Shown here: in pieces, positions 3,878-40,156 of the stretch | Layout of the letters: each line of letters begins with the position of its first letter | Position numbering within the stretch: position 1 is the first letter of the stretch | NCBI GenBank assembly: GCA_963718875.1 | Contig: OY970378.1 | Span: 754,433 to 818,432 of the forward strand | Reading direction: 5' to 3' | DNA: 64,000 nucleotides | DNA from: Candidatus Parcubacteria bacterium | GTDB taxonomy: Bacteria; Patescibacteriota; Saccharimonadia; UBA4664; JBIOIQ01 | Notes under the pieces: model-generated | What the model saw: only the letters and a program-made list of their open reading frames with translations | Told to the model about the DNA's origin: nothing | Database searches by the model: none | Translations under genes and position numbers: made by a program

Positions 3878-3963
3878 GGGCGAGTGGTGAAATGGTATAC
3901 ACGCTAGCATGAGGGGCTAGTGACCGCAAGGTCGTGGAGGTTCAAGTCCTCTCTCGCCCACCA
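3878..3963 (+). tRNA. tRNA-Leu (anticodon GAG), long variable arm
   Basis: Manual fold: acceptor GGGCGAG/CTCGCCC, anticodon stem CTAGC/GCTAG with loop ATGAGGG, long variable arm, T-arm GGAGG-TTCAAGT-CCTCT, CCA encoded. Confidence 0.7.
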
Positions 3964-4048
3964 AAGCAATCTTCGCTTTTTTATCAAACACTTTATTAAA
4001 AATGCTCCCGCACCGGCTAACCGGTACGGGAGAAAATGGTGCAAGAAT

Positions 4049-4816
4049 CTACATGCCGACCGCGTGAAAACCGCCATCGGCGTGGATGATCTCACCAGTT
4101 GTGGCGGGGAGCCAGTCTGACAACAGAGCCACACAGGTTCTAGCGACCGACTTGGGGTCTTTGGCGTCCCAGCCTAGAGGAGCTCGAGCATCCCAGGGTT
4201 CGGCGATAGCGTCGAAGCCGGCAATGGATCTGGCGGCTACTGTCTTGAGCGGTCCTGCCGAAACCAGGTTGACCCTGACGCTGTACTGACCCAAGTCACG
4301 AGCGAGGTAGCGGGCAGTAGATTCCAGCGCTGCCTTTGCCACACCCATCCAGTTGTAGGACGGCCATGCTTGGCTGGCGTCAAAGTCAAGCCCAACAATG
4401 GAGCCGCCACCTTTCATCAACAGCAAAAGAGTTTCGGCTAGCGCTTTGAGAGAGAAAGCTGACGTCTGGACGGCCACGGACACGTCAGGCCATGGCGCAG
4501 CTAGAAAATCGCCTCCGATACAGGATGCCGGGCCATAGGCGATGGCGTGGAGCACTCCGTCTAAGTGGTCCCAGCGATTACCAAGGTCAGTAGCCAATGA
4601 GGCTAAGTGTTCCAAATCATTAACATCCACCTCCAGCACATCGGGGACGGGAAACAATCTACTGGCTGTTCGTCTGGTCACGCTCATGGCTCGACCGAAG
4701 CTGGTCAAGACTATTTCGGCGCCTTCACCCTGAGCCACCTTGGCCACTTCGTACGCAATCGAGTCGGAGTTAAGGACTCCCGTTATCAACAACCGCTTGC
4801 CATCCAGCAGCCCCAT
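4049..4816 (-). CDS. fabI: enoyl-ACP reductase, NADH-dependent (FabI/InhA type); high-GC island gene
   Basis: SDR-fold enoyl reductase signature (GKRLLITGV...SIAY, Y..K catalytic region, DGGFHA C-terminal motif as in InhA). Visibly GC-rich codons. Confidence 0.8.
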   Translation of the reverse strand: MGLLDGKRLLITGVLNSDSIAYEVAKVAQGEGAEIVLTSFGRAMSVTRRTASRLFPVPDVLEVDVNDLEHLASLATDLGNRWDHLDGVLHAIAYGPASCIGGDFLAAPWPDVSVAVQTSAFSLKALAETLLLLMKGGGSIVGLDFDASQAWPSYNWMGVAKAALESTARYLARDLGQYSVRVNLVSAGPLKTVAARSIAGFDAIAEPWDARAPLGWDAKDPKSVARTCVALLSDWLPATTGEIIHADGGFHAVGM

Positions 4817-4965
4817 TGGGGTCTCCTTTGATCGTTCTTAGGGACGGGTCAAGTAATAACACACTTTGATTGAAAATTACAGCATAAGTGGAGCGGTGTT
4901 AGAATTAAAACGCGTGAGCGCCTCCCGTACTGGCAAGATGCTCAGCGCGGAAGGCGCGTCGGGGA

Positions 4966-5637
4966 TTAGGGGTCGGTAGAGTTGGGTACTGCCTGAGCTA
5001 ACTCAGACCAGTGCTCATGCAAAAGCTGTCCTTCTACCCAGGCGAGAGCTAGCATGATGACCTGCCACTGGCGATCTTCCCCCTCACCCCCTGTGTGGCT
5101 CCACGTTTTGCCATCAATAAACACGCACTCGATGGCGTGTACGTAATTTTCAACCGGCTCGAAGATAAGCACCAAACTTCCTGGTTGTTGCCTGCCATCA
5201 TCATCGAACCTCTCCACTATGGCTCGAACATAAACGGTACCATCTGTGCCCTTAAATGGCTTTGCTTCGGTAACTTTTGCCCAGCTATCAAACCACAATT
5301 GTTCGATCTGGATCCTGAGAGCTCGCTCTTCGCCTTGAAGCTGGAACAATCGGTCTTTTTCCTGGCGTCGCAACCTTTCCTTCTTAGTACTTTCAGATCG
5401 GGCGAAGTTTTTGAGGGCTGTATCGACCACAAAAAGCATGAGGACCGAAGTCGCAATGAATATCCATCCAATGACTTTTTTGTGGCGCACAACGAAGCCA
5501 ATTTCCGGGAGCACAACGAAGCCAATTGCAAGACAAACAAAAGCGTCGAATGTCTTTTTGAATGCCCCGTACCGATCCTGCCATTTAGTGGAGCTGTATT
5601 TGTACACGAATTCCTCCCATCGAATGGCCGTCTGCAA
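4966..5637 (-). CDS. hypothetical membrane protein
   Basis: 223-aa track ORF with two TM segments and a charged coiled-coil stretch. Overlapping ORFs 5095..5661(+) and 5217..5861(-) judged spurious. Confidence 0.45.
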   Translation of the reverse strand: MQTAIRWEEFVYKYSSTKWQDRYGAFKKTFDAFVCLAIGFVVLPEIGFVVRHKKVIGWIFIATSVLMLFVVDTALKNFARSESTKKERLRRQEKDRLFQLQGEERALRIQIEQLWFDSWAKVTEAKPFKGTDGTVYVRAIVERFDDDGRQQPGSLVLIFEPVENYVHAIECVFIDGKTWSHTGGEGEDRQWQVIMLALAWVEGQLLHEHWSELAQAVPNSTDP

Positions 5638-6151
5638 GATTGCGCGGCGAGGATGAGCTGATTATAGTCAGCTAGCTTAACTTGTGCAATTAAAGCGATC
5701 AGCTGTGTTTTCATAGCAGCCAACGCAGAGCGGCAAAGAACCTTCTCAGCTTTGGCCGGTACAACTAGATAATGAGACTGAGATTTTCGGGAAAGACTAT
5801 GTTTTGACTTTTTTTTGGGGGGTAAATGTATAGCGTCTATCGGAGCGATTTTCGACTTCACCGATCACGGCGGGCTGAAGGACATGATCATTTTCTGGCA
5901 TTCCCCACAACTCGGACAACTCTTATTAACGGGTTAGCGGGGTATTAGTCATTTATAACCTATGTTTTGGTTATATCCATTTTGTAATTAGACAGTACAT
6001 ATAAACATTGTGGTAGCTAAGCGCAAAAAGTTGTGAGTTTAGCTAGCGCCTGGCCAGACCAAGATGTTTATTCTTATATAATACAGGTCTAAATTTTATT
6101 TTATGTTCTAACTATATTCAGCTTATAAGCTTAGATAACCACCAGAGGAGT

Positions 6152-7360
6152 TTGCTTGCCGTGAGCCAGGCTTCGGATATTGCAAAAAGACAACCTTTTA
6201 GTAGAGACGATAAGCCACTTTCGGGCAATCAGCTTTTAGATACATTAGCCGAGCTAAGCTCCTCTAAGGCAACCCTAGAAGAAGACCGCATTCGCAACCA
6301 GGCTTTACTTAATAGTTTGGGCGAGGGATTAATTGTTATCGACCAGGACGGCATTATTACAACCATCAATCCCAAAGCGGCTGAGATCTTAGGAGTCACG
6401 GAGACTGAATTGTTAGGAGAGTGGTTCCCACGCGCCGTTCAAGCTGTAGACTCTGGAGGTAGGGTGATCCAAACTTTGAAACGTCCTATCATCCAGGCTT
6501 TGTCGCAAGGTCATGCTGTATCTGGAAACTCAAATTATGTCTGCAATGATGGTAGCATAATTCCGGTAGCTTCAAATGTTGCTCCTGTGGTGGTAAACGG
6601 GCGACCCGTGGGTGCTATTGAAGTGTTCCGCGATATTACCGAAGAACAAGCTTTAGAGCGGGCTAAAGACGAGTTTGTTTCGCTGGCGTCACATCAGTTA
6701 CGCACGCCTGCAACTGCAGTTAAGGCAATTTTGGCCATGCTCGTAAGTGGTGATTTTGGCGAAATGACCCCAAGGCAAAAGCATTTTATAACTAAGGCCA
6801 TCTCTACTAATGATCGTCAGCTGGAGATCATTGAAGACATGCTTCATGCTGCTAGAATTGACGCAGGCAAGATGCAACTTTCTTTGGAGACAGTGGAGCT
6901 GGTGGGGATGTGCAATGAAGTAGTGCGAGAGCAGCTGCGAGACATCGAGAGTCGCAAACAAACCATTAATATTCGTCGGCCATCACAGGAGTTGTTTGTT
7001 AAAGCCGATGCTACAAAACTACGTATGGTTTTGGAGAACCTCATTTCCAATGCCCATAAATATACCCCCAACGGCGGTAGAATAGATATCAGGACAGTAG
7101 TGACAACCCCTACAGTCCGGGTTGAGGTAGCCGACACTGGGGTGGGTATTAAAAAATCTGATTTAAATAAACTGTTTGATAAGTTTTCTCGTATCGATAA
7201 CCAGCTATCAGCTAAAGTAGGCGGCAGCGGGTTAGGGTTATACTTAGTCAAACACATAATTAATTTACACGAAGGCAATATACACGTGGAGTCTAAACTT
7301 GGTGAAGGGAGTACGTTTACGGTGGAGCTACCAATGCTTGCTAGGTCTAAGGCTTTGTGA
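6152..7360 (+). CDS. sensor histidine kinase, cytoplasmic, with PAS domain
   Basis: PAS-like region (GLIVIDQDGII), HisKA H-box SHQLRTP, HATPase_c N/G boxes (NAHKYTP, GGSGLGL). Confidence 0.8.
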   Translation: MLAVSQASDIAKRQPFSRDDKPLSGNQLLDTLAELSSSKATLEEDRIRNQALLNSLGEGLIVIDQDGIITTINPKAAEILGVTETELLGEWFPRAVQAVDSGGRVIQTLKRPIIQALSQGHAVSGNSNYVCNDGSIIPVASNVAPVVVNGRPVGAIEVFRDITEEQALERAKDEFVSLASHQLRTPATAVKAILAMLVSGDFGEMTPRQKHFITKAISTNDRQLEIIEDMLHAARIDAGKMQLSLETVELVGMCNEVVREQLRDIESRKQTINIRRPSQELFVKADATKLRMVLENLISNAHKYTPNGGRIDIRTVVTTPTVRVEVADTGVGIKKSDLNKLFDKFSRIDNQLSAKVGGSGLGLYLVKHIINLHEGNIHVESKLGEGSTFTVELPMLARSKAL

Positions 7361-8313
7361 ATAAATTCATAAGCAGAGAATTAGGCCAAAAAAAGAGGGG
7401 TTTATCGAATAAAATTATTTATTTTGCAGTTATTGTTTGTTGGTTAGTATACGCAGGACTAGCGCTACAAAGCCCTTCAAGAGGTGCTGCTAGATTCAAT
7501 TTAAGCTCGTCTCAGACCCAGCTTGTGCAGTTAACGATAATTTTACCTTTGCTTGCCATATGGTTAGTAGCCACATATGGAGCTTTGCGATTTCGGCACT
7601 ACGCAAAGATGATAAAAACAAGCCCAGACGGACAAGCGGCATCTACTCTAGCGAAAGGCCTTATAGCACTGGTAATTTATTTAGTTATTTCCAGCATTGT
7701 CAATAGCGCTGGTCCATATTTTGCTGGTACACCGTGGGTAAAAATTATGGTAATTATAAAAAACTACTTACCCCTGGCCATTGCTTTCATAGCTTTCGCG
7801 CTACTTTACCAAGGATCTCTGAAATTAATGTTTCTTATAAAAGCACCGACCTGGCGCGCCAGCCGACTAATTTTGTTTTTAATCCCTTTTTGTATGTTTG
7901 CGATATTTTTCACTTGGGTTTTTTACCTTAATCCTGACCTTCATGAAACGGCTAGCAACGGCCTGCCCTACTTCGTCGCCCCCCGCGCATTACTACTTTT
8001 TACATATGTTTTGCCTTACTTATTAATGTGGTTTTTGGGGAGCTTAGCAGCCTTGAACATCCGGCTTTACGCACGAGACGTAAACGGCTCTATCTATCGC
8101 TCAGCTTTACTCAATCTTGTCGGTGGCATAGCGACTGTGGTGTTTTTAACTATAGCGCTCCAGCTATTATCTACTGTATCTTCGACGATTAACCATTTAA
8201 ATTTAGCCTCTATTTTATTGTTGGTCTACGTACTAGTGATTTTGTACGCACTCGGATATGCACTGATAGCATTAGGTTCGAAAAAGCTACTCAAGATCGA
8301 AGAGACTCAATGA
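7357..8313 (+). CDS. polytopic membrane protein (about 8 TM) encoded between kinase and regulator
   Basis: 318 aa, highly hydrophobic; start overlaps the kinase stop by 4 nt. Confidence 0.55.
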   Translation: MNKFISRELGQKKRGLSNKIIYFAVIVCWLVYAGLALQSPSRGAARFNLSSSQTQLVQLTIILPLLAIWLVATYGALRFRHYAKMIKTSPDGQAASTLAKGLIALVIYLVISSIVNSAGPYFAGTPWVKIMVIIKNYLPLAIAFIAFALLYQGSLKLMFLIKAPTWRASRLILFLIPFCMFAIFFTWVFYLNPDLHETASNGLPYFVAPRALLLFTYVLPYLLMWFLGSLAALNIRLYARDVNGSIYRSALLNLVGGIATVVFLTIALQLLSTVSSTINHLNLASILLLVYVLVILYALGYALIALGSKKLLKIEETQ

Positions 8314-8573
8314 GCGATGACCTCTTTGAATCCATTGTCAACATTGCTGAAGAGTATATAGGACCTCCCGCCAAGCGATTTATGTCGCGACAAATTATAT
8401 CCCACCTTCAAAAAGACCCCAATGAAATTGTGCTGTCTGATATTCCGTTGCTAGCAGACTGGACACGCATCACGGTAGCTTTACTAACGGAAGATAAAGA
8501 AATGGTAGAAAGTTTTATTCAACGCCTGCTTAAGCTGAGTGAGCCTGATGTGGGGGTAAAAAATGGCAGCTAA
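8310..8573 (+). CDS. small hypothetical protein in the two-component operon
   Basis: 87 aa; overlapping start/stop with both neighbours. Confidence 0.4.
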   Translation: MSDDLFESIVNIAEEYIGPPAKRFMSRQIISHLQKDPNEIVLSDIPLLADWTRITVALLTEDKEMVESFIQRLLKLSEPDVGVKNGS

Positions 8574-8949
8574 GCGAATTCTACTAGTTGAAGATGACGA
8601 CCTGCTACGCGAACTTTACGAAATTAAGTTTTTTGCCGAAGGTTTTGAGGTAGCGGCTACGCGCGACGGACAAGAAGCTTTGGATCGGGTGGAGGAATTC
8701 GAGCCTGGAATAATTTTGCTAGATATGATGATGCCTGTGATGAACGGAATGGAGTTTTTACGTCGCTATAAGCCAACCGACCACCCACAGGTTAAAGTGA
8801 TTGTTTTGAGTAACAAATCGACTCCTAATGACGTTTATGATGCTAAACGTTTAGGCATTACTGACTACCTTATCAAGTCGAAATTTACGCCAGACGATTT
8901 GGTTCAGGAACTACATTATTATGCTTTTGACGAGCCCAAAAAAGAGTAA
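8563..8949 (+). CDS. single-domain response regulator (CheY-like receiver)
   Basis: RILLVEDDD..., phospho-acceptor D in ILLDMMMP, conserved T/S and K (KVIVLSNKS...LIKSK); no output domain. Confidence 0.8.
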   Translation: MAAKRILLVEDDDLLRELYEIKFFAEGFEVAATRDGQEALDRVEEFEPGIILLDMMMPVMNGMEFLRRYKPTDHPQVKVIVLSNKSTPNDVYDAKRLGITDYLIKSKFTPDDLVQELHYYAFDEPKKE

Positions 8950-9038
8950 CATCAGTGTGTTTTCTAGCACGATAACTTCAAGAGTAGCCTTGTTTGAATT
9001 GAATCACCCTTGTATTATTAAGCAGCGCCAAAACGTTA

Positions 9039-9079
9039 GGGCGATTAGCTCTCCGTCGGATGACGGATGACTAGAGCGC
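9039..9079 (+). pseudogene. truncated pseudo-tRNA: 5' part of the tRNA-Val sequence with the D-loop replaced by a 16-nt palindrome
   Basis: GGGCGATTAGCTC and AGAGCGC are identical to the tRNA-Val immediately downstream; between them TCCGTC-GGAT-GACGGA replaces the D-loop. Confidence 0.4.
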
Positions 9080-9092
9080 TTATGTGATATTA

Positions 9093-9169
<77 letters not shown>

Positions 9170-9310
9170 GATTGATTGAAAAATAAGTTCAAAACCGGTA
9201 TGATGCTTCAGTTAGTAACCACCTCAAGTCTCGTATTCTGAGGTAATACTACATCGAGCGCGAACTGGAGGTAATGATGTCGAAGTGCGAGAACTATGAA
9301 GCGTGGTTGC

Positions 9311-9386
9311 GGCGCCTTAGCTCAGTTGGTAGAGCAGTGGCCTGAAGAGCCTCGTGTCGTTGGTTCGAATCCAACAGGCGCCACCA
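9311..9386 (+). tRNA. tRNA-Phe (anticodon GAA)
   Basis: Acceptor GGCGCCT/AGGCGCC, anticodon loop CTGAAGA, T-arm GTTGG-TTCGAAT-CCAAC, CCA encoded. Confidence 0.75.
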
Positions 9387-9510
9387 TTCGACTCCCCCGC
9401 ATCAGATGCGGGGTCGCTCATTGGTAAACCATTTTTTTTGGATCAGGGATTTATAGATAGTATTTAGGGTACTTCCTAGCTACTAACTGCTAGTCCCTAA
9501 TCCATAGTAT

Positions 9511-9586
9511 GCGGGTGTAGCTCAGCTGTTAGAGCGCTTCCTTGCCAAGGAAGAGGCCCAGGGTTAGAGTCCCTGTACCCGCACCA
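9511..9586 (+). tRNA. tRNA-Gly (anticodon GCC)
   Basis: Acceptor GCGGGTG/TACCCGC, anticodon stem CTTCC/GGAAG with loop TTGCCAA, T-arm CAGGG-TTAGAGT-CCCTG, CCA encoded. Confidence 0.75.
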
Positions 9587-9640
9587 TTTTAGCTAAACCG
9601 ACAAATACGCTGTGAAGCGTATTTTTGTTATGATAAGCAT

Positions 9641-10414
9641 ATGGCTAAAATAACATCGCAAGATGGAACAATAATCACTTATGACAAAAAGGGTCTTGGA
9701 CCGTTGCTCATTTTGGTGCTTGGAGCGCTGAATAGACGAAGTCAAGGTAAAAAGCTAACTGAACTATTAGCAGACCGTTTCACGGTAGTCAGTTATGACC
9801 GCCGAGGCAAAGGCGATAGTACTGATACATTGCCATACTCTACCGATAAGGAAGTTGAAGACATTGAGGCGCTCATTGATGAGTCTGGTGGGAATGCATA
9901 TTTGTATGGTCACTCTTCAGGCTGCGTACTCGCCTTAATGGCTGCTAAGAAACTGAGCGATAAAGTAAAAGCGTTGGCTCTCTATGAATTACCTTATAAC
10001 GCAGACCATTCAGCTCAAGAAAAGGCTAAAGCCTACCGAAAAGAGCTTGCGGAATATATAGCCGAAGATAAAAGAGGCGAAGCGGTAGCGTTATTCATTA
10101 AGTCGGTAGGTGTATCCGACAAACAAGTGGCAGCAATGGAGCGCTTGCCAATGTGGAAAGGTCTGACTGCAATGGCTCATACCCTTATCTACGACACTGT
10201 TGAACTTATGGAAGCATATCCAACATTGAACAGTGAGAGTATTCCTGTAAGGACTTTAGTAATGTATGGCGATGCTAGCCCTGCTTTCATGGGTGAAACG
10301 GCACAGAAATTGTCTGAAGCAATGCCTAATGCGGCACTTCGTTCGCTTGAGGGTCAAGTACACGACGTAAAAGCCGATGCACTAGCTCCAGTACTAACCG
10401 AATTCTTAGCCTAA
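9641..10414 (+). CDS. alpha/beta-fold hydrolase
   Basis: Nucleophile elbow GHSSG and typical length and topology. Confidence 0.6.
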   Translation: MAKITSQDGTIITYDKKGLGPLLILVLGALNRRSQGKKLTELLADRFTVVSYDRRGKGDSTDTLPYSTDKEVEDIEALIDESGGNAYLYGHSSGCVLALMAAKKLSDKVKALALYELPYNADHSAQEKAKAYRKELAEYIAEDKRGEAVALFIKSVGVSDKQVAAMERLPMWKGLTAMAHTLIYDTVELMEAYPTLNSESIPVRTLVMYGDASPAFMGETAQKLSEAMPNAALRSLEGQVHDVKADALAPVLTEFLA

Positions 10415-11196: not shown

Positions 11197-11478
11197 TTAA
11201 GTAAATTCTGTAAATCTGCACCAAATATCTGAATTATGAGCCGAAAGGCTCTTTTTCTTTGCCTCAACAATGGTTTTAAAGGGGTCGTTTAGTATATAAG
11301 ACAGCTTTTTGTCCTTTAACTCAATGTTTGAAAGTACGTATTCTAAAAGTTTCTGTCTTAGCCCCTCATCGCTCTCTTTAAACAGCTGGTCAGCCCGTTG
11401 AGCTAAGTCTAACAGGTAAGAAGCGGTTACTTGGAACTGCTTATTGTCGTTTGTTAGCAACTTTAGGCGGTCATTCAA
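11197..11478 (-). CDS. hypothetical coiled-coil protein
   Basis: 93-aa track ORF, divergent from csoR; no motif recognised. Confidence 0.35.
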   Translation of the reverse strand: MNDRLKLLTNDNKQFQVTASYLLDLAQRADQLFKESDEGLRQKLLEYVLSNIELKDKKLSYILNDPFKTIVEAKKKSLSAHNSDIWCRFTEFT

Positions 11479-11561
11479 TTCCTGCTGTTTCTTTTCTAGC
11501 TCAGTTGCAATTTCATCGTGGAATGTCTGTGCAATCCCCCTATCAACACCCTATTTGCATA

Positions 11562-11578
11562 GTACCCCTAGGGGGTAT
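11562..11578. promoter_or_regulatory. GC-palindrome operator candidate (CsoR-type box) upstream of csoR
   Basis: GTACCCCTAGGGGGTAT lies 13 nt upstream of the csoR ATG. CsoR operators in characterised systems are TA-flanked C-tract/G-tract palindromes. Confidence 0.45.
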
Positions 11579-11590
11579 ATAGTAGAGGCT

Positions 11591-11875
11591 ATGATAAGCG
11601 ATATAAAGCAACGAGCATTACACCGAGCCAAGATACTTGAGGGTCAAATGCGTGGCATCCAGAAAATGATTGACCAAGAGGATTACTGTATGGATATTCT
11701 TACTCAAAGCCTGGCAATCCAAAAATCTATTGGTTCGCTCAATAAGCTAATTCTTGAGAACCACGTGCGTACCCACGTCAAGGAAAGCCTCAATTCGGGC
11801 TCGGACAAAGAACAGGAAAAGTCAATTGATGAGCTACTGAAACTATACGAGCTATCTAATATAAGAAGTAAGTAA
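11591..11875 (+). CDS. csoR: CsoR/RcnR family metal-sensing transcriptional repressor
   Basis: Internal start MISDIKQRALHRAKILEGQMRGIQKMIDQEDYCMDILTQSLAIQKSIGSL, the DUF156 signature with the conserved Cys. The track ORF's N-terminal 49 aa are Cys/Phe-rich junk. Confidence 0.75.
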   Translation: MISDIKQRALHRAKILEGQMRGIQKMIDQEDYCMDILTQSLAIQKSIGSLNKLILENHVRTHVKESLNSGSDKEQEKSIDELLKLYELSNIRSK

Positions 11876-11883
11876 GGAGTAAA

Positions 11884-12321
11884 GTGATGAAAAAGGAAAG
11901 CATAATGGGAGGCGTAATCGGGCTACTTGTAGGTGTGATAATTACTGGATTTGCCGCAGGTCAAGCAGTGAATAACGACAATACGAGGATGATGCAGATG
12001 ATGGGTATGGACACGAAAAGAAGCCAGCAGCAAACTGCTACGAGCCACGACACTATGTCGATGGCCGATATGAACAAGGTGCTGGCGGGTAAAACTGACG
12101 ATGACTTTGATAAAGCATTCCTTGAAATGATGATTACACATCATCAGGGTGCAATTGATATGGCTAATCTCGCTCCTACACGTGCCAAACACGAAGAAAT
12201 AAAGACATTGAGCCAAGAAATTATAAAAGCTCAGAATAAAGAAATAACAGATATGCAACAGTGGCAGATGGACTGGGGTTATATGACGAGTGATAACTCA
12301 ATGCCAGGTATGAACCACTAA
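11884..12321 (+). CDS. DUF305 family protein (copper-resistance-associated, secreted or membrane-anchored)
   Basis: Met-rich N-terminal region and a DUF305 helix with HHQGAI motif. Confidence 0.7.
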   Translation: MMKKESIMGGVIGLLVGVIITGFAAGQAVNNDNTRMMQMMGMDTKRSQQQTATSHDTMSMADMNKVLAGKTDDDFDKAFLEMMITHHQGAIDMANLAPTRAKHEEIKTLSQEIIKAQNKEITDMQQWQMDWGYMTSDNSMPGMNH

Positions 12322-12323
12322 AA

Positions 12324-14336
12324 ATGGACCATTCGCACCACGAACATAAAGACACCGAACATCAAGAACACGATAAACACGCTGGTCATTCAGTAGCAAT
12401 GTTCAAAGATAAGTTCTGGTTGTCGTTGCTGCTTACTATACCTGTGCTTGTATATTCTGAGATGATACAGCACTGGTTCAACTTTACACCGCCTAGTTTC
12501 CTTGGCTATCAGTACGTACCATTTGTATTTAGTTCTATCATTTTCTTTTACGGCGGTTTAGTGTTTATAAAGAGTGCGTTAGGAGAACTAAGAGCCAAGC
12601 TACCAGGAATGATGACGCTCATCAGCTTGGCAATTATAACTGCATATGTTTACAGTGTCGCAACACAGTTTTTTATTAAGGGCGATGGTTTCTTCTGGGA
12701 ACTAGCTACCCTAGTAACCATTATGCTACTAGGTCATTGGCTTGAAATGGCATCGGTAGCTAAAGCAGAGAATGCACTTGACGCTATCTCAAAGCTGTTA
12801 CCTGATAAAGCCGAAAGGCTCGTAAAAGGCAAGGCAATACAGGTGTTAGTTAGTGAGCTGAAAGTTGGCGACCTAGTGCTGATACGACCTGGCGCAAGTA
12901 TACCCGTTGATGGCGTGATTGTAGAGGGCAGTTCATCTGTTGATGAAGCTGCTATCACTGGCGAGAGTAAGCCCGTAAGTAAAACCGTCAACGATGAAGT
13001 TGTTGCTGGTACAGGTAACCAAGACGGCTCGTTGACCGCAAAAGTTACAAAGCTAGGTCAAGATACGGCACTAGCTGGCATTATGCGTCTGGTCGCAGAA
13101 GCTCAAAAATCCAAATCTAACGTTCAGGTGCTTGCGGATAAAGCAGCGTTTGCACTTACTATCATCGCAATAGCAACAAGTATTATCACTTTTATCTATT
13201 GGCTCATTGCCAAAGACGCATCGTTCGCATTAGAGCGGTCAGTTACTGTTCTAATTATCGCTTGCCCACACGCACTAGGCTTGGCTATACCGCTGGTTGT
13301 TTCAATATCAACCGCCCTATCTGCTCGTAATGGTTTGTTAGTTCGCAATCGACTTGCTCTTGAAGCGGCTCGTAAGTTGGACTGGGTACTGTTTGATAAG
13401 ACAGGCACACTCACCAAAGGCGAACACGGCGTTACAGATGTGTGGGCTACAAAAGGCTATTCCGAGGAATACATACTACAGCTCACTGCCAGCCTTGAGC
13501 AAAATAGCGAGCATATTGTAGGTAAAGGCATTGTGCGAAAAGCCGAGAAGCAGCACGTCCATCTTGATAAAGTCGCTAACTTCAAAGCGTTGCCTGGCTT
13601 GGGCGTACAAGGCACTTTACACGGCAACGAGGTGTATATAGCAGCCAGCTATCGCTATATTGAAGAAAACAAGCTGACAGTTCCAACCGAAATAGCAAAG
13701 ATGGTCAAGCAAGCTGCCAAAGAAGGTAAGACAGAGGTGTATCTGATTATCAATAAAAAGGTTGTCGGTGCATTGGGCTTAGCTGACATAGTTCGTGAAC
13801 AATCCAAGCAGACAATCGTAACCCTCAAATCAATGGACATAAAGACAGCAATGATAACAGGTGACTCGGATGAGGTTGCAACTTACGTTTCAGAACAGCT
13901 TGGCTTGGACCAGTATTTTGCTGAGGTTAGACCAGAAGACAAAGCAGCAAAAGTCAAAGAATTGCAGAAAAACGGACAGCAGGTTGCGATGGTTGGCGAC
14001 GGCATCAATGATGCACCTGCGCTTACACAAGCCGATATTGGCATAGCTATTGGTGCTGGCACAGATGTAGCAATCAAGTCGGCTGATATTGTCTTGGTAA
14101 AAAGTGACCCTCAAGACGTGGTAAAGGTAATCAATCTTTCAAAAGCTACCTATAAGAAAATGGCTCAGAACCTAGTTTGGGCTACTGGCTATAACGTGTT
14201 TGCAATACCGCTTGCAGCTGGCGTTCTTTACGGGGCTAACATTGTTCTTGCTCCTGCACTCGGAGCTGTGCTTATGTCAGTCTCAACTGTTGTAGTGGCG
14301 TTCAACGCTCAGTTGCTCAGACGAGTAAAGCTGTAA
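12324..14336 (+). CDS. heavy-metal (copper) translocating P1B-type ATPase with His-rich N-terminus
   Basis: CPH transmembrane motif ([11 protein letters not shown]), DKTGTLT phosphorylation motif, GDGINDAP hinge, N-terminal [23 protein letters not shown]. Confidence 0.85.
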
Positions 14337-17954: not shown

Positions 17955-18180
17955 GGTACTCTCACATATTTTTTTGAAGAATAGGTTTTCTTTGTAAGGT
18001 GTTATAAATATTGACCTCCAACGAGCTAAGCTGCCTGCTGATGAGGTGAAGTGGGATTTGAGGGACTTTGTTACCATCGGATTTTCCTGATAGCCAGTGT
18101 TGCAAAGAACTTGATGCCCCCTCCTCTAGACCCGGCGGTCTGAAAGAGGGGGCATCTTAGGTTGTAAGCTACTGTTAGAG

Positions 18181-19119
18181 CTACCCCTGGTCAAGGCCTC
18201 CGTCAAAGCGGCTTCTATCGACTGACGGATCGTTGGCGGATACCACCGCTTGAACGCCCGTATCCGGTGTGCCGCCGGGAGGCGGTGGAGCATCGAGGGC
18301 GAACTCTGCCGGCGTCGGTATAGGAGGCCTTGGGTGTCGACCGATGCCTTCAATTGCCTTTTCGACCGTCCTATTGGCAGCCTCCGTGAACCTTGCAAGC
18401 TGACGCTCAAGCGCACCGTACCGCGCCTCACTCAGATCGAGTTGCTCACGCAGATCGGCGTTGATTCGCTCCTGCGCCGACAGGTCTTCCAGTGCTTGGC
18501 CATGAGTCTGCACCAGCTCCCGGACCCTTGCCAAGAGAATTTGCAACTGACCTTCTCGAGCCGCCAGGTCAGACGCGATCGACTCGACCATCTCTAGGAG
18601 ATCGGCGACGGTGGGCTGGGGGTTGGGTACATCTACGTCTTCCCGTCCCTGTTCTACGATCGCTGGCGAGTGGGCACGAACTTCCTGGAGGACTGCTCTC
18701 CTGATGTCCGCAAGCTCTACCCCTAGCTTGACCAGAACTTGGCATCCTACTGCATCTTCGTCTCTGAGTAGGCCGAGCAGGATGTGCGCTGGGGTTATGA
18801 CCTCACTCTCGCTCGGCCCTTGAGGCGGCACTAGAAGAGCTTCACGTACCGACAGCTCGAGAACCTTTTTGGCTCGAGGAGTAAAAGGAATGCGGCCGCT
18901 AGGCGATGATTCTCCCAGACCAATGTCCTCCTCTACTTGCTTTCGGACGCATCCGAGAGTAACCCCGAGTCCGTCGAGGACACTGGCCGCGTCTCCTCCT
19001 TCTCGGATCAAGCCGAGCAGGATGTGCTCGGAACCGATGTAGCTGTGGTGGAGCTGGCGCGCCTCCTCCTGAGCCAAGACGACGACACGTCGGGCACGTT
19101 CGGTGAATCGTTCGTACAT
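18181..19119 (-). CDS. Clp N-terminal (Clp_N repeat) domain protein with coiled-coil and Pro-rich C-terminus; high-GC island gene
   Basis: Two Clp_N repeats (FTERARRVVVLAQEEARQLHHSYIGSEHILLGLIRE... and ...ITPAHILLGLLRDED), no AAA+ domain; strongly GC-rich codons. Confidence 0.65.
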   Translation of the reverse strand: MYERFTERARRVVVLAQEEARQLHHSYIGSEHILLGLIREGGDAASVLDGLGVTLGCVRKQVEEDIGLGESSPSGRIPFTPRAKKVLELSVREALLVPPQGPSESEVITPAHILLGLLRDEDAVGCQVLVKLGVELADIRRAVLQEVRAHSPAIVEQGREDVDVPNPQPTVADLLEMVESIASDLAAREGQLQILLARVRELVQTHGQALEDLSAQERINADLREQLDLSEARYGALERQLARFTEAANRTVEKAIEGIGRHPRPPIPTPAEFALDAPPPPGGTPDTGVQAVVSANDPSVDRSRFDGGLDQG

Positions 19120-19498
19120 TTTCGGTCCCCCTTAGGGATCGGTGCTACTCGGTTGGGATGGTACTCGCAAAAGCTGTATGAGGCTGGTTTGACCTCACAA
19201 AAAACGCCAATATATTTTACTGCTTTTGGGCGTTTGTGTCAAAAATAATTGTTTGTGAATCTTGAAACCCCTTAAACTTTTTGTCATCCTCCGACTTGAT
19301 CGGAGGATCTCGGCTAGATTCCCTACCCGGAGCGCCAAGCCAGGTAATAGTTGGGCTTGGCTTTCCGATAGGGAATGACACAAAATGGTGTGTTGATAAT
19401 TGCATTTGCCCTGTCTGCCGAGCCACTTTGAGAGTGACCCGGCAGACAGCATTGGACGATGGACTTCACTACTTGGTTTGCTTGGACTGATGAGGGGG

Positions 19499-20494
19499 CT
19501 AGCGAGGAGTAACCGCCCGGCGGATGTTACCCACCAAGTCTCCGGCCACCATCTCCGCCGCTAGGCCAACGGCGTTGAAGATAGCACGGCTCGATGCAGA
19601 GCCGTGGCTGATGATGCAGACCCCGTCGACGCCCAACAGAGCGGCGCCGCCGTAGGTGTCGGGGTCAAGCTCAGCTTGCAGAGGCAGGAGAGCCGGCAAC
19701 AGGACCTTGGTGGCCTCGCGAGCCTCCTCAGTTGATGTCATCGCTCGGAGAAGGGCGTCAACAACCACCCGAACGGACCCTTCGAGGGTCTTGAGGACGA
19801 CGTTGCCGGTGAATCCGTCGGTAACCACCACATCGGCCGCGTCAGTCAGGACGTCACGGCCTTCCACGTTGCCTATGAAGCGGCCTACCGATAGGGCGCC
19901 TGCCTCAGCCAGCAGGGCATGCGCCCCTTTGACCAGTTCGTTGCCCTTGCTTTTCTCCTCTCCGATGGAAAGGAGCCCAACGGTCGGCTCGTCCTTGCCC
20001 AGACGCAAAACGGCGTAGGCCGCCCCCATCTGAGCAAACTGCAACAGCCAGGGCGGCGTGCACTCGGCGTTGGCTCCACTGTCGAGGAGGACAGTGGGAC
20101 TGGAGCCGGGTACGGGGAGCATTGTAGCGATAGCCGGACGGGCAACGCCGGCGATGCGACCCATGCGAAGCAAGGCACTAGCCATAGCCGCACCGGTATT
20201 TCCGGCACTCACCATGGCACTGGCTCGCCCGTCGCGTACCGCTTCGGCTGCTCGCACCATACTGGCGTCCTTCTTGCGTCGGACTCCCTGCATGGCATCG
20301 TCACCCATTTCGATGACCTCGCTCGCGGGCCAACATTCGAGATCACCGGTGTGGAGTTCTTGCAATACTTCGGCTTGACCAACCAGAACCACGGGGACGC
20401 CGAACCGCTCTGCGGCCTCGCGGGCACCTGCCACAATCTCTCCGGGGCCTTTGTCACCCCCCATCACGTCTACTGCAATCGGTAGCTCTGGCAT
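19499..20494 (-). CDS. plsX: phosphate acyltransferase PlsX; high-GC island gene
   Basis: PlsX signatures (IAVDVMGGD..., GNTGA, DGFTGNVVLK, ISHGSAS); GC-rich codon usage. Confidence 0.85.
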   Translation of the reverse strand: MPELPIAVDVMGGDKGPGEIVAGAREAAERFGVPVVLVGQAEVLQELHTGDLECWPASEVIEMGDDAMQGVRRKKDASMVRAAEAVRDGRASAMVSAGNTGAAMASALLRMGRIAGVARPAIATMLPVPGSSPTVLLDSGANAECTPPWLLQFAQMGAAYAVLRLGKDEPTVGLLSIGEEKSKGNELVKGAHALLAEAGALSVGRFIGNVEGRDVLTDAADVVVTDGFTGNVVLKTLEGSVRVVVDALLRAMTSTEEAREATKVLLPALLPLQAELDPDTYGGAALLGVDGVCIISHGSASSRAIFNAVGLAAEMVAGDLVGNIRRAVTPR

Positions 20495-20610
20495 TTTCTG
20501 CTCCTTCCGTAGAGCATCGTCGGGACAACAAAAAGGCGCTCACTTTTGATGTGCGCTCACCTTGCGCACAATAATAGCATATGTAAAGGGAAAAACGAAC
20601 TTGATTAAGC

Positions 20611-20650
20611 GATCCTGAAACGACCGTCAGTTGACGGTTCAGGATGACAA
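20611..20650. repeat. 40-bp palindromic repeat element, copy A (GATCCTGAAACGACCGTCAGTTGACGGTTCAGGATGACAA)
   Basis: 39/40 identical to the copy at 39647-39686. Internal palindrome ACCGTCA-GT-TGACGGT. Ends in GGATGACAA, the reverse complement of TTGTCATCC at 19281-19289. Confidence 0.6.
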
Positions 20651-20725
20651 GCAGAATGAAGGGTTGGGAATCTGATGCGCTCAAGGTATAATCATAAACA
20701 GTTTTCTCTTCGTATTTCTAAGTGC

Positions 20726-20799
20726 GGCACCGTGGCGGAGTGGCTACGCAGAGGTCTGCAAAACCTTTTACACCGGTTCAATTCCGGTCGGTGCCTCCA
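20726..20799 (+). tRNA. tRNA-Cys (anticodon GCA)
   Basis: Acceptor GGCACCG/CGGTGCC, anticodon stem GAGGT/ACCTT with loop CTGCAAA, T-arm ACCGG-TTCAATT-CCGGT, CCA encoded. Confidence 0.7.
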
Positions 20800-20855
20800 T
20801 ATTTTTACAAAGTAAAAATATGTCCTGAGCGTAGTCGAAGGACAGAAATTTTCAA

Positions 20856-37965: not shown

Positions 37966-38005
37966 GGAAGTCCGACTTCCCTACCCGAGAGGAAGTCGGA
38001 CTTCC
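37966..38005. promoter_or_regulatory. two copies of the 15-bp palindrome GGAAGTCCGACTTCC, 10 bp apart, about 90-130 bp upstream of uvrA
   Basis: Read directly: GGAAGTCCGACTTCC-CTACCCGAGA-GGAAGTCCGACTTCC. Confidence 0.35.
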
Positions 38006-38112
38006 TGGGGGTATAAAACGAAATGCCCCTCCCAGGCATCTCGAGGTGAGTGCCTGAAGACTAAGGCCCGGTTCGACAACGATGTCGAACCGGGCCTTTT
38101 TATCCCCATGCT

Positions 38113-38625
38113 TCAGCCGAGCAGCTTGTGGATCACCCGGGCCGCTTCTTGACGCTTGACCACTAGAACGATCGCGAAGACTGCAACGACAAGGACGAGG
38201 ATAAAGATGGTCACTCTAGCTGGAGTATGCGAGATCAACCCCCAGGCGATAGTGCTGTAAATGATGGGCCACCAGACGGCACGCATCAGCTCAAAAGATC
38301 CAGAGAGGGCGTCGGCGACCCAGACACCTAGAATCAGCACCACGCCGAACCAAATCCAGAGGTCACCGGCGACCATCATGCCGATGAGCGGGCTGACAAG
38401 GAGTACGCGGTCAGACTGACCGTCAAGGTGGTAGCCAAACTCAGTTGCAACTCCCCACCTTTTGGCCAGGAAGCCATCGAGAAGATCACTTCCGAATCCG
38501 CCCACAACGAGCCAGATGGCGGCGGAGGTCCAGTGGTTTTCGATAATGAGAGTGTAGACATAAACCGCCATCAACAGCCGAAGCGCGCTAATGACATTGA
38601 CCGTGATGAGCTTGAAAGTTCTCAT
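38113..38625 (-). CDS. CDP-alcohol phosphatidyltransferase family protein; high-GC island gene
   Basis: D-G-x2-A-R...G-x3-D-x3-D motif (DGFLAKRWGVATEFGYHLDGQSDRV) in a multi-TM protein; GC-rich. Confidence 0.7.
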   Translation of the reverse strand: MRTFKLITVNVISALRLLMAVYVYTLIIENHWTSAAIWLVVGGFGSDLLDGFLAKRWGVATEFGYHLDGQSDRVLLVSPLIGMMVAGDLWIWFGVVLILGVWVADALSGSFELMRAVWWPIIYSTIAWGLISHTPARVTIFILVLVVAVFAIVLVVKRQEAARVIHKLLG

Positions 38626-38777
38626 GTCTTTTCTCCTGCTCGAGCTTTGGGATGTGCGAAGGGTGTTTATAATAACATACTTTCACGTAAAATACAATGT
38701 TTTACTGTCTGAAGAGGCAAAGAGCCCGGGTCGACGTCATTGTCGACTTGCGGGCTCTGTTGTTTTTCGCCTGTTCC

Positions 38778-39500
38778 CTACTTGGATCGGACCTTGCTCT
38801 TACCAGTCCGGTAGTTGTACTCGATATGGTCTCCAGTCTTGGTCATGGGGGCGATGGTGTCGAGGACTACCATCGAGACGAAGCCGGCGAAGCCGATGGC
38901 GAAGGTCAACGTGACCAACGTACTTCGTTGCGTGACCAGAAGCGGCACAAGTGCCGAGAGCATCCAGTAGGCCACAATGGCGAAGATGAAGGTGTGCCAG
39001 AGCTTGGAGGGGCTGAGCTCCTGCGCCATGGTGTAGTAGCCGCACTTGACCGGGGACAGCTCCATGAGCAGCGATAGGCCGAAGCCGAACGCTAGGAGGG
39101 TAAGGTGCCACCAGCGCTGGGTGTACCACCCGTTGGAGGGTGTCCAGGCCCGCAGAGCGTACCCCATCCCAATGAGGATCATTGGGATGAAGAGGGTGTC
39201 GTTGAAGCGGAAGGTCCAGTAGCGCGGAATCGTGGGGTCTCCCTCGACGAGGCGCCTGATCACGAGGATGGCCACGAAGTCGGCCAAGATCATGATGGCC
39301 GCGGCGGCGAATGGTCCCCACGGACGGGCGACCCAGCGGTAGATGTCGAGTGCTGGCAGAATGCCGGCGGAACGTGACTTGCCAGTGGCGGGCTTGGAGG
39401 CGGCGAGGAGCATCAGCTCCAGCGCTACAAACACGAAGAGCAGATAGATAGCAGTCCGACGGGGCATGACTCCTCCAGAGGGAGTAGTAGGGATATTCAA
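38778..39500 (-). CDS. polytopic membrane protein, hypothetical; high-GC island gene
   Basis: 240-aa hydrophobic ORF. The alternative frame 38800..39564 is Arg-rich and typical of an off-frame in GC-rich DNA. Confidence 0.5.
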   Translation of the reverse strand: MNIPTTPSGGVMPRRTAIYLLFVFVALELMLLAASKPATGKSRSAGILPALDIYRWVARPWGPFAAAAIMILADFVAILVIRRLVEGDPTIPRYWTFRFNDTLFIPMILIGMGYALRAWTPSNGWYTQRWWHLTLLAFGFGLSLLMELSPVKCGYYTMAQELSPSKLWHTFIFAIVAYWMLSALVPLLVTQRSTLVTLTFAIGFAGFVSMVVLDTIAPMTKTGDHIEYNYRTGKSKVRSK

Positions 39501-39586
39501 CTGTCAACAAAGTGCGAGAAACTATATTATAATAGCATACTTTCACGATAAATGCAAGGTCCAACGCTTGAACTCAATAACCTAAC

Positions 39587-39686
39587 TTGTCATCCCGGAC
39601 CGGAAGGCTTTAGCCGCTCCGGATCCGGGATCCACCAACTGTCGTGGATCCTGAAACGACCGTCAGTTGACGGTTCAGTATGACAA
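39587..39686. repeat. composite repeat element B: TTGTCATCC - 34-bp motif (inverted copy of 25874-25907) - 40-bp palindromic element - GTATGACAA
   Basis: Starts with CTTGTCATCC and ends with TATGACAA (inverted termini). Contains GATCCTGAAACGACCGTCAGTTGACGGTTCAGTATGACAA, 39/40 identical to copy A at 20611. Confidence 0.55.
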
Positions 39687-39694
39687 TTGACAAA

Positions 39695-40156
39695 TTAGCG
39701 AGTTATAGGCGATGTCGAGGAAGGTTTCTCGTGGATGCTTGGACTTGGGTTGCCGTAGTCGTCATATATGGAATAAACCTGGTTCTCAAAACACTGATAG
39801 CCCTTTTTGTGATACTGAGCACTCTGCCTAGAGTATGAAGAACGATAGCTCGGTGCGCCTTTGCTGGCATCTGTCACAAAAACGGCACATAATTTGTATT
39901 TGGTTGTGGATAAAGTGTTGTAGTCATACTTTTGAGCACGTTTAACGACGTCATTACTAAGACCGTCCAGACTACTAATGGCGACGGGAAGTCGGCGGTT
40001 GGTTCTGGCATAGTCTTCAATCTTATTTTGAATGTCGGAAAGGTCGTTGACTGTTTTTCGATCGGCCACCGGCCCGCGCGATCTAATTACCTGGTTCACT
40101 ATTGCTACGGAGCAAAAAATGATTAGAGCTGCAATGAATAGATAGTATTTTTTCAC
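39695..40156 (-). CDS. hypothetical secreted/anchored protein
   Basis: 153 aa, N-terminal hydrophobic helix. Confidence 0.4.
   Translation of the reverse strand: MKKYYLFIAALIIFCSVAIVNQVIRSRGPVADRKTVNDLSDIQNKIEDYARTNRRLPVAISSLDGLSNDVVKRAQKYDYNTLSTTKYKLCAVFVTDASKGAPSYRSSYSRQSAQYHKKGYQCFENQVYSIYDDYGNPSPSIHEKPSSTSPITR

Follow-up and report, generated by a model that had tools for sequence, protein, structure and literature searches.

STAC domains have been described both as free-standing proteins and as parts of large sensor kinases. The stand-alone form is a four-helix bundle of 60-90 residues, made of two alpha-hairpins with a central loop of about nine residues (PMC5715377, PMC4834066), and carries the signature LGPx(x)A, which joins helices 1 and 2 (PMC4834066). 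Its founding structure is that of Af1502 from Archaeoglobus fulgidus (PMC4834066, PMC5715377), a protein described by its authors as a singleton in sequence searches (PMC4834066). Genes for stand-alone STAC proteins follow, and are translationally coupled to, genes for HAMP-only receptors such as Af1503 (PMC4834066). In the kinases CbrA and CrbS, the STAC domain is embedded between an SLC5 domain of 13 transmembrane (TM) segments and PAS-kinase modules (PMC5715377), and RpuS is a characterised SLC5/STAC kinase (PMC9100948). The role of STAC is an open question in this literature, where a proposal that it acts as a coupler (PMC13022988) stands against a deletion without phenotype (PMC5715377). 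Here we describe a four-gene operon, HK-MP-S-RR, in a 64-kb stretch of contig OY970378.1 from a Candidatus Parcubacteria bacterium (the window, by which we mean the whole stretch that was analysed). It encodes a soluble histidine kinase (HK), a polytopic membrane protein (MP), a small four-helix protein (S) and a receiver-only response regulator (RR), and is the sole two-component system within the window. The reading that we favour, and regard as somewhat probable, is that MP is the membrane input, that S is the coupler and that HK phosphorylates RR, the locus as a whole being a CbrA/CrbS-type sensor split into separate proteins.

Components of the proposed split module

The operon and the SLC5/STAC kinases (CbrA, CrbS/MxtR, RpuS) contain the same parts, namely a membrane module, a STAC-type bundle, a PAS domain, HisKA and a catalytic domain. 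The domain order of CbrA, SLC5-STAC-PAS-HK (PMC5715377, PMC7918813), is also the gene order MP-S-HK in many relatives of the operon; compared with CbrA, the window is permuted, with HK first. SLC5/STAC kinases are one polypeptide, whereas here the parts are encoded by three separate open reading frames (ORFs), each of which starts and stops at codons of its own. They carry a 13-TM SLC5 domain, whereas MP has eight TM helices in a 4+4 duplication and no SSF match, and their regulators are of the NtrC or LuxR type, whereas the regulator here is receiver-only. Af1503/Af1502 offers a second parallel, with a small four-helix protein right after, and coupled to, an output-less membrane protein (PMC4834066), and Af1502 and S both have an LGPx(x)A motif. 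The partner of Af1502 is of the HAMP type, whereas MP has eight TM segments and lacks both HAMP and a large extracytoplasmic domain. In addition, the window operon has a dedicated PAS kinase and receiver, whereas the available part of the Af1503/Af1502 report mentions no partner downstream of that pair (PMC4834066).

S, which the original prediction had listed without interpretation, is the most informative part of the module. Its AlphaFold2 model, built from 40 sequences (predicted local distance difference test, pLDDT, 90.7), has helices at residues 3-17, 21-33, 42-59 and 63-75, which form two alpha-hairpins with an 8-residue central loop at 34-41. In a Foldseek search with this model, ranks 1 and 2 are two chains of Af1502 (probability 0.97, E 0.63), making Af1502 (PDB 5A1Q) the closest solved structure. 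The length of S, 87 aa, is inside the span of stand-alone STAC proteins, and IGPPA, a form of the signature [LI]GPx(x)A, sits in the turn between helices 1 and 2 (Table 1). The family consensus at this turn is YLGPAA, and its conservation is the highest in the protein (0.97); the helix 3/helix 4 turn, LLTxD, scores 0.83 and helix 4 scores 0.42. The S profile finds 578 matches at E <= 0.001, of which the 120 listed span 76-97 aa, and the named relatives among these 120 all belong to Saccharibacteria or Patescibacteria. It also retrieves small proteins, more distant members of the family, located right after HAMP-only receptors, in locus L021 (dCache_1+HAMP) and locus L023 (2TM+HAMP), which is exactly the Af1503/Af1502 context. 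By modelled fold, motif, size and gene context, S is probably a stand-alone STAC domain.

Sequence databases give S no name. Neither S nor 40 of its relatives match Pfam or NCBIfam, PDB sequence searches with the S profile and with the S-like protein of L023 returned nothing meaningful, and tblastn of S against plasmids gave no match at E <= 10. In L021 (4761-10105), the S-family member (5992-6219) lies between an output-less dCache_1+HAMP receptor and cheW, cheY, cheB and cheA, and a gene for a methyl-accepting chemotaxis protein is found just upstream of this cluster. This context hints that stand-alone STAC proteins can also feed chemotaxis-type kinases.

MP is an integral membrane protein. 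Its family, which is undescribed as far as we have checked and absent from Pfam and NCBIfam, has hundreds of members. MP itself has no sequence match in Pfam, NCBIfam or the PDB, the last searched with the MP profile, and no polytopic sensor-domain model in Pfam matches it at E <= 1. MP and 44 aligned relatives, 45 family members in all, have no Pfam match at E <= 0.01. A search for sensor domains of the 5TMR-LYT, MASE or 7TMR-DISM type, which had been suggested as a check, was accordingly negative in all 45 at that threshold. An exhaustive profile search recovered 809 representative homologue clusters at E <= 0.001, 527 of them below 1e-30; the best 150 matches listed are about 300 aa long and single-domain except for one protein, P0232. 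A word-indexed search recovered nine relatives only.

The MP sequence has eight Kyte-Doolittle hydropathy peaks (1.85-2.74 over 19-residue windows), and its AlphaFold2 model (pLDDT 81.7; predicted template modelling score, pTM, 0.80) has eight long helices. Lysine and arginine are enriched in the N-terminal tail, in loops 2, 4 and 6 and in the C-terminal tail, and from this clustering both termini are predicted to be cytoplasmic. MP is a tandem 4TM+4TM duplication. When the profiles of the two repeats were aligned with hhalign, they matched over 135 columns with a probability of 98.1% and an E value of 6.7e-14, whereas a reversed control gave E 0.035 and five column shuffles gave E 0.12-0.49. 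Both repeats share the pattern P-x4-W...Y-A-x-x-[IV]-K. As the helices of a repeat are even in number, the repeats are expected to share one orientation, like a covalent homodimer. Repeat 2 ends in a conserved cytoplasmic tail with the consensus GAKKLxKIEEV. Conservation across the family peaks in cytoplasmic loop 6 (0.67), the C-terminal tail (0.66) and loop 2 (0.54), and is lowest in the outward loops (0.26-0.43).

In the family alignment, the membrane region of MP shows no conserved charged residue. The TM positions conserved at 80% or above are mainly G, P, W, Y, L, I, A and F, with one Asn, N136. We considered a retinal-binding, rhodopsin-like protein and rejected it, as no TM helix has a conserved lysine. 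Sequence identity to G-protein-coupled receptors is only about 10%, and given the eight helices and the 4+4 repeat, we read the structural neighbours of MP as generic bundle similarity and not as homology. The origin of the eight helices from two homologous 4-TM repeats likewise argues against common descent with 7TM receptors. Like MASE1/8TMR-UT, 5TMR-LYT, 7TMR-DISM and the 7TM receptors, MP is a polytopic helical bundle proposed to feed a cytoplasmic signalling module. The known polytopic sensor domains form one polypeptide with their output, whereas MP is encoded on its own, and neither MP nor its relatives match MASE1-9, 5TMR-LYT, 7TMR-DISM or MHYT in Pfam.

HK consists of a PAS domain and a HisKA-HATPase_c core (Table 1). 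In the 402-aa numbering, its phospho-acceptor is His181 (codon 6692-6694) within SHQLRTP, and boxes N, G1, F and G2 are NLISNAHKYT at 296, DTGVGI at 328, FDKFSR at 342 and GGSGLGL at 357. RR has one Response_reg domain (Pfam, 2.9e-24, residues 6-117) and no second domain; its phospho-acceptor is Asp54 (codon 8722-8724), with an acidic pocket at D11-D13 and with S83 and K105. Together, HK and RR have all the catalytic motifs of a HisKA-type two-component pair, from which phosphotransfer is predicted, and it is reasonable to expect from its domain content that RR acts by protein-protein contact. Among 20 kinases of the module, the PAS domain is well conserved, with the motifs GEGLIxxD and GAIEVFRD, and the leader ahead of it varies in both length and sequence. 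The 19-residue hydropathy maxima of HK, S and RR are all at or below 1.29, the value for HK. Because HK has no TM segment, a membrane-derived signal would need a partner protein to reach it.

The best NCBIfam models for HK are PnpS, WalK and PhoR, every one below its cut-off, and we claim no homology with the PhoR system. PhoR-PhoU-PstSCAB follows the same logic as the module, combining a membrane complex with a small helical adaptor and with a kinase whose sensing goes through a cytoplasmic PAS domain. In that system PhoR is membrane-anchored, PhoU is a larger, unrelated helical protein and the membrane partner is an ABC transporter.

The gene junctions were read directly from the sequence. 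HK and MP share GTGA at 7357-7360 and MP and S share ATGA at 8310-8313, each a 4-nt overlap, the latter placing the start codon of S on the stop codon of MP; S and RR overlap by 11 nt (8563-8573). The original prediction had described four genes of one operon overlapping by 4-11 nt, encoding a soluble PAS kinase without TM segments, a 318-aa protein with about eight TM helices, an 87-aa ORF and a receiver-only regulator. This description is borne out by the junctions (4, 4 and 11 nt), by the Pfam domains and hydropathy of HK, by the eight hydropathy peaks and eight modelled helices of MP, by the presence of the 87-aa ORF and by the single Response_reg domain of RR.

HK more likely starts at GTG 6161 than at TTG 6152. 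GTG 6161 lies about 9 nt past AGAGGAG (6145-6151), which resembles a ribosome-binding site and which TTG 6152 abuts, and it corresponds to the 399-aa kinase of the public gene call. The 5' side of the operon is an AT-rich spacer of about 290 bp. Consensus promoter and terminator scans over 5600-9700 found sites no more frequently than in shuffled sequence, and no + strand terminator was placed within the four genes. Genes for tRNA-Val, tRNA-Phe and tRNA-Gly lie 3' of the RR gene on the same strand, within 9093-9586, and the first + strand terminator-like hairpin occurs only past these three genes, at 9603-9624. The operon and the three downstream tRNAs might be co-transcribed. An Rfam scan found tRNAs only.

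Table 1 Features of the HK-MP-S-RR operon, in window coordinates
Feature	Coordinates	Strand	Basis
HK, soluble histidine kinase	6152..7360	+	ORF list, 402 aa from TTG 6152; more likely 399 aa from GTG 6161
PAS domain of HK, residues 49-166	6296..6649	+	Pfam PAS_9 2.8e-12, PAS_4 4.3e-12, PAS 1.6e-10
HK kinase core	6662..7336	+	Pfam HisKA residues 171-239, HATPase_c residues 286-395
MP, 318-aa integral membrane protein, 8 TM helices	7357..8313	+	ORF list, GTG start
MP repeat 1, residues 19-165, TM1-TM4	7411..7851	+	repeat-vs-repeat hhalign
MP repeat 2, residues 166-318, TM5-TM8	7852..8310	+	repeat-vs-repeat hhalign
S, 87-aa cytoplasmic four-helix protein, stand-alone STAC-like	8310..8573	+	ORF list
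IGPPA in S, residues 17-21	8358..8372	+	[LI]GPx(x)A signature, helix 1/helix 2 turn
RR, 128-aa receiver-only response regulator	8563..8949	+	ORF list

Conserved linkage of MP, S and the kinase

We gathered related loci via MP, via S in species-representative genomes and via S in metagenomes, and annotated them with our own hidden Markov models (HMMs). Linkage was counted over 39 non-redundant loci, nearly all of them from Saccharibacteria, which include the window and in which L016 and L018 are counted once. MP is directly upstream of S in 33 of the 39, and a PAS-HisKA-HATPase kinase is within the cluster in 27. When only loci uncut by a contig end are considered, the MP-S pair is found in 25 of 30, and 23 of these 25 have the kinase as well. 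Two gene orders occur. HK-MP-S-RR is found in the window, L001, L008, L010-12, L027 and L029, and MP-S-HK(-RR) in L002, L005, L013-15, L017, L020, L024, L031, L034 and L035, indicating that the MP-S-HK linkage survived a rearrangement. The linkage holds down to about 30% MP identity. About half of the loci have a receiver-only gene behind the module, and the four genes of the window recur in L001, with overlaps of 4/4/11 nt, and in L008, with overlaps of 8/4/11 nt. Of the genome loci recovered with S, 14 out of 15 come from Saccharibacteria, Patescibacteria or unclassified metagenome-assembled genomes, and one is labelled Ignavibacteria. The named relatives of MP, like those of S, are all from Saccharibacteria or Patescibacteria, and on these grounds the window most likely belongs to a Saccharibacteria genome.

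The gene neighbourhood, proposed as a check with the original prediction, thus gave a positive answer, with tight linkage between the MP family and a soluble PAS kinase in both gene orders. Membership of MP in an unrelated transporter family with no kinase co-occurrence had been named as the contrary outcome; no transporter family was assigned, and co-occurrence with kinases is strong. For the suggestion that MP is the detached sensory input of the kinase, the picture is divided: the linkage in two orders supports it, and the search of MP for known sensor domains lends it no support.

A gene for a Crp-family regulator adjoins the module in L002 (1141-1824), L005 (4793-5458) and L019 (7823-8524), three loci that are not near-duplicates of each other. 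The assignment is based on Pfam cNMP_binding and HTH_Crp_2 in L002 and L005 and on N-terminal sequence only in L019. No Crp-family regulator was seen near the module in the window. ABC transporter genes accompany S-HK pairs elsewhere: in L016 (3356-5643) and L018 (16-690), S-HK lies beside a divergently oriented FtsX-like permease and ATPase, and in L019 (3370-4931) its neighbours are an ABC ATPase and a 7-TM permease. These proteins are possible alternative membrane partners at S-HK loci that have no MP.

Proposed signal path and competing explanations

In the signal path that we propose, MP would be a pseudo-dimeric 2x4-TM protein in the cytoplasmic membrane, with both ends inside, that acts as the input. 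S, probably made in step with MP from a start codon on the MP stop codon, would dock on the conserved cytoplasmic face of MP via its hairpin tips YLGPAA and LLTxD, and would relay the conformational state of MP to the soluble PAS-HisKA-HATPase kinase. HK would then autophosphorylate on His181 and pass the phosphate to Asp54 of RR, which would act on a partner through protein-protein contact. The new 8-TM protein would in this way stand where the SLC5 transporter domain sits in CbrA/CrbS. The MP-S and S-HK contacts and the direction of signalling are modelled on CbrA. In its electron cryo-microscopy structure, STAC is positioned beneath the membrane domain, where its helices 3 and 4 have their tips in a pocket, and the authors of this preprint propose that STAC is an allosteric coupler that relays motions of the transporter to the kinase (PMC13022988). 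A two-hairpin bundle puts both tips at one end, and in S the tips are the two most conserved segments, suggesting that this is the docking end.

Several observations weigh against this signal path. The coupling role of STAC is itself unproven, and removal of STAC from either kinase, CbrA or CrbS, had no growth phenotype in P. fluorescens (PMC5715377). S-HK pairs occur without MP in L016, L018 and L019, and MP-S pairs occur without a nearby kinase in L009, L032 and L033 (two when redundancy is removed, L009 and L032). A fusion of MP and S, P0232 (397 aa, with YLGPTAERF in its tail), does point towards the path, but we treat it as weak evidence: it is a singleton from a contig of just 1,855 bp, and no fused relatives were recovered in a search for them. 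Nothing in MP points to a ligand or a ligand-binding site. Finally, the S HMM does not match RpuS, and hhalign of S gave probabilities below 1% both with RpuS by itself and with 12 aligned sequences of RpuS/CrbS-type STAC, in a comparison of low power since the profiles are shallow (effective number of sequences, Neff, 2.6 and 3.8). It is because no profile links S to the SLC5-type STAC that we call the STAC assignment only probable. For these comparisons, RpuS was located on pNGR234b and 11 plasmid-borne homologues of its STAC region were collected. The RpuS candidate (L044, 23129-26692, - strand) is 1,187 aa long and matches Pfam PAS_7, HisKA, HATPase_c and REC; its N-terminal 13-TM region, SLC5-like according to the literature, has no SSF match at E <= 0.01.

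The most serious alternative, which we nonetheless consider unlikely, is that MP is a small transporter or channel of an unrecognised family, with STAC reporting the transport cycle to the kinase or regulating flux. Tandem parallel repeats are present in some transporter families, and where MP is missing, in L016, L018 and L019, S-HK adjoins ABC transporter genes. Both roles of STAC have precedents as proposals, the reporting of a transport cycle for CbrA and the regulation of flux by Korycinski et al., who first put it forward for STAC. The usual fused partner of STAC is moreover an SLC5 transporter (PMC5715377), and transport systems are over-represented around genes for Af1503-like receptors (PMC4834066). 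However, neither MP nor the 45-member set matches any transporter family, and a membrane region devoid of conserved charged residues is not in favour of a transporter. We regard as more improbable still that MP and S only tether, localise or weakly modulate a kinase whose own PAS domain reads a cytoplasmic signal. Such an anchoring role would agree with the good conservation of PAS across the module kinases, with the existence of S-HK pairs that have no MP, and with the finding that over-expressed soluble CbrA without its membrane domain still signals and requires PAS (PMC7918813). A simple tether, however, would have no need of eight TM helices, of a strongly conserved cytoplasmic face or of a dedicated, translationally coupled adaptor, and MP-S pairs also occur with no kinase adjacent.

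That the four genes form no functional unit, MP and S being unrelated to the two-component pair and merely packed beside it in a small, dense genome, has hardly any probability in our view. Overlapping genes are common in compact genomes, and no promoter or terminator signal rises above shuffled sequence at the locus. Against this, MP-S-HK stay together in 23 of the 25 uncut MP-S loci, to about 30% MP identity and across a changed gene order, and the linkage data practically exclude unrelated neighbours. Within the reading of MP as input and S as coupler, it is possible, and we suggest it tentatively, that MP founds a new class of bacterial polytopic receptors, pseudo-dimeric 2x4-TM bundles that are output-less and reach a soluble PAS kinase via a free-standing STAC protein.

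Each building block has precedents, since two-component systems, soluble PAS kinases, REC-only regulators and stand-alone STAC proteins have all been described before. What is new, as far as we have checked, is the family of 2x4-TM partners, the complete separation of membrane, STAC and kinase parts into individual proteins, and the wide conservation of this arrangement in Saccharibacteria. In the literature available for searching, no paper links Saccharibacteria with STAC or describes the module, and a prior listing in the original STAC paper (2015) is possible. The known partners of STAC are SLC5 transporters and HAMP-only receptors, to which MP adds a third, unrelated membrane family. If MP does found a new receptor class, STAC would serve generally as a portable link to cytoplasmic kinases from membrane modules as unrelated as SLC5 transporters, HAMP-only receptors and this 8-TM family. 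As the membrane, STAC and kinase proteins are separate, coupling could be tested by mixing, omitting and titrating them, and not by cutting a protein of about 1,000 residues. Saccharibacteria are genome-reduced bacteria, and the relay, if real, could be among the few channels by which these reduced, host-dependent organisms read their envelope or their host. As the sole two-component system in the window, and a widely conserved one, it is a candidate route for an important input from the environment or the host.

Other features of the window

Three blocks of the window stand out in GC content. Block 4001-6000 has a GC content of 0.517, versus about 0.43-0.47 in the sequence flanking it. At 4049-4816 on the - strand, beside tRNA-Leu at 3878-3963, lies a gene for a FabI/InhA-like enoyl-ACP reductase (Pfam adh_short_C2, 1e-64), and this gene may have been horizontally acquired in a reduced genome. 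The GC-richest block of the window, 18001-20800 (0.575), encodes a Clp_N-domain protein (18181-19119) and PlsX (19499-20494), with tRNA-Cys (20726) and tRNA-Leu (21270) just downstream, and may be a second foreign island. A third GC-rich block, 38001-40000 (0.54), has overlapping ORFs on both strands. Elsewhere, at 11444-14336, a metal-handling cluster encodes a CsoR-type metal-sensitive repressor, a DUF305 protein and a P-type ATPase.

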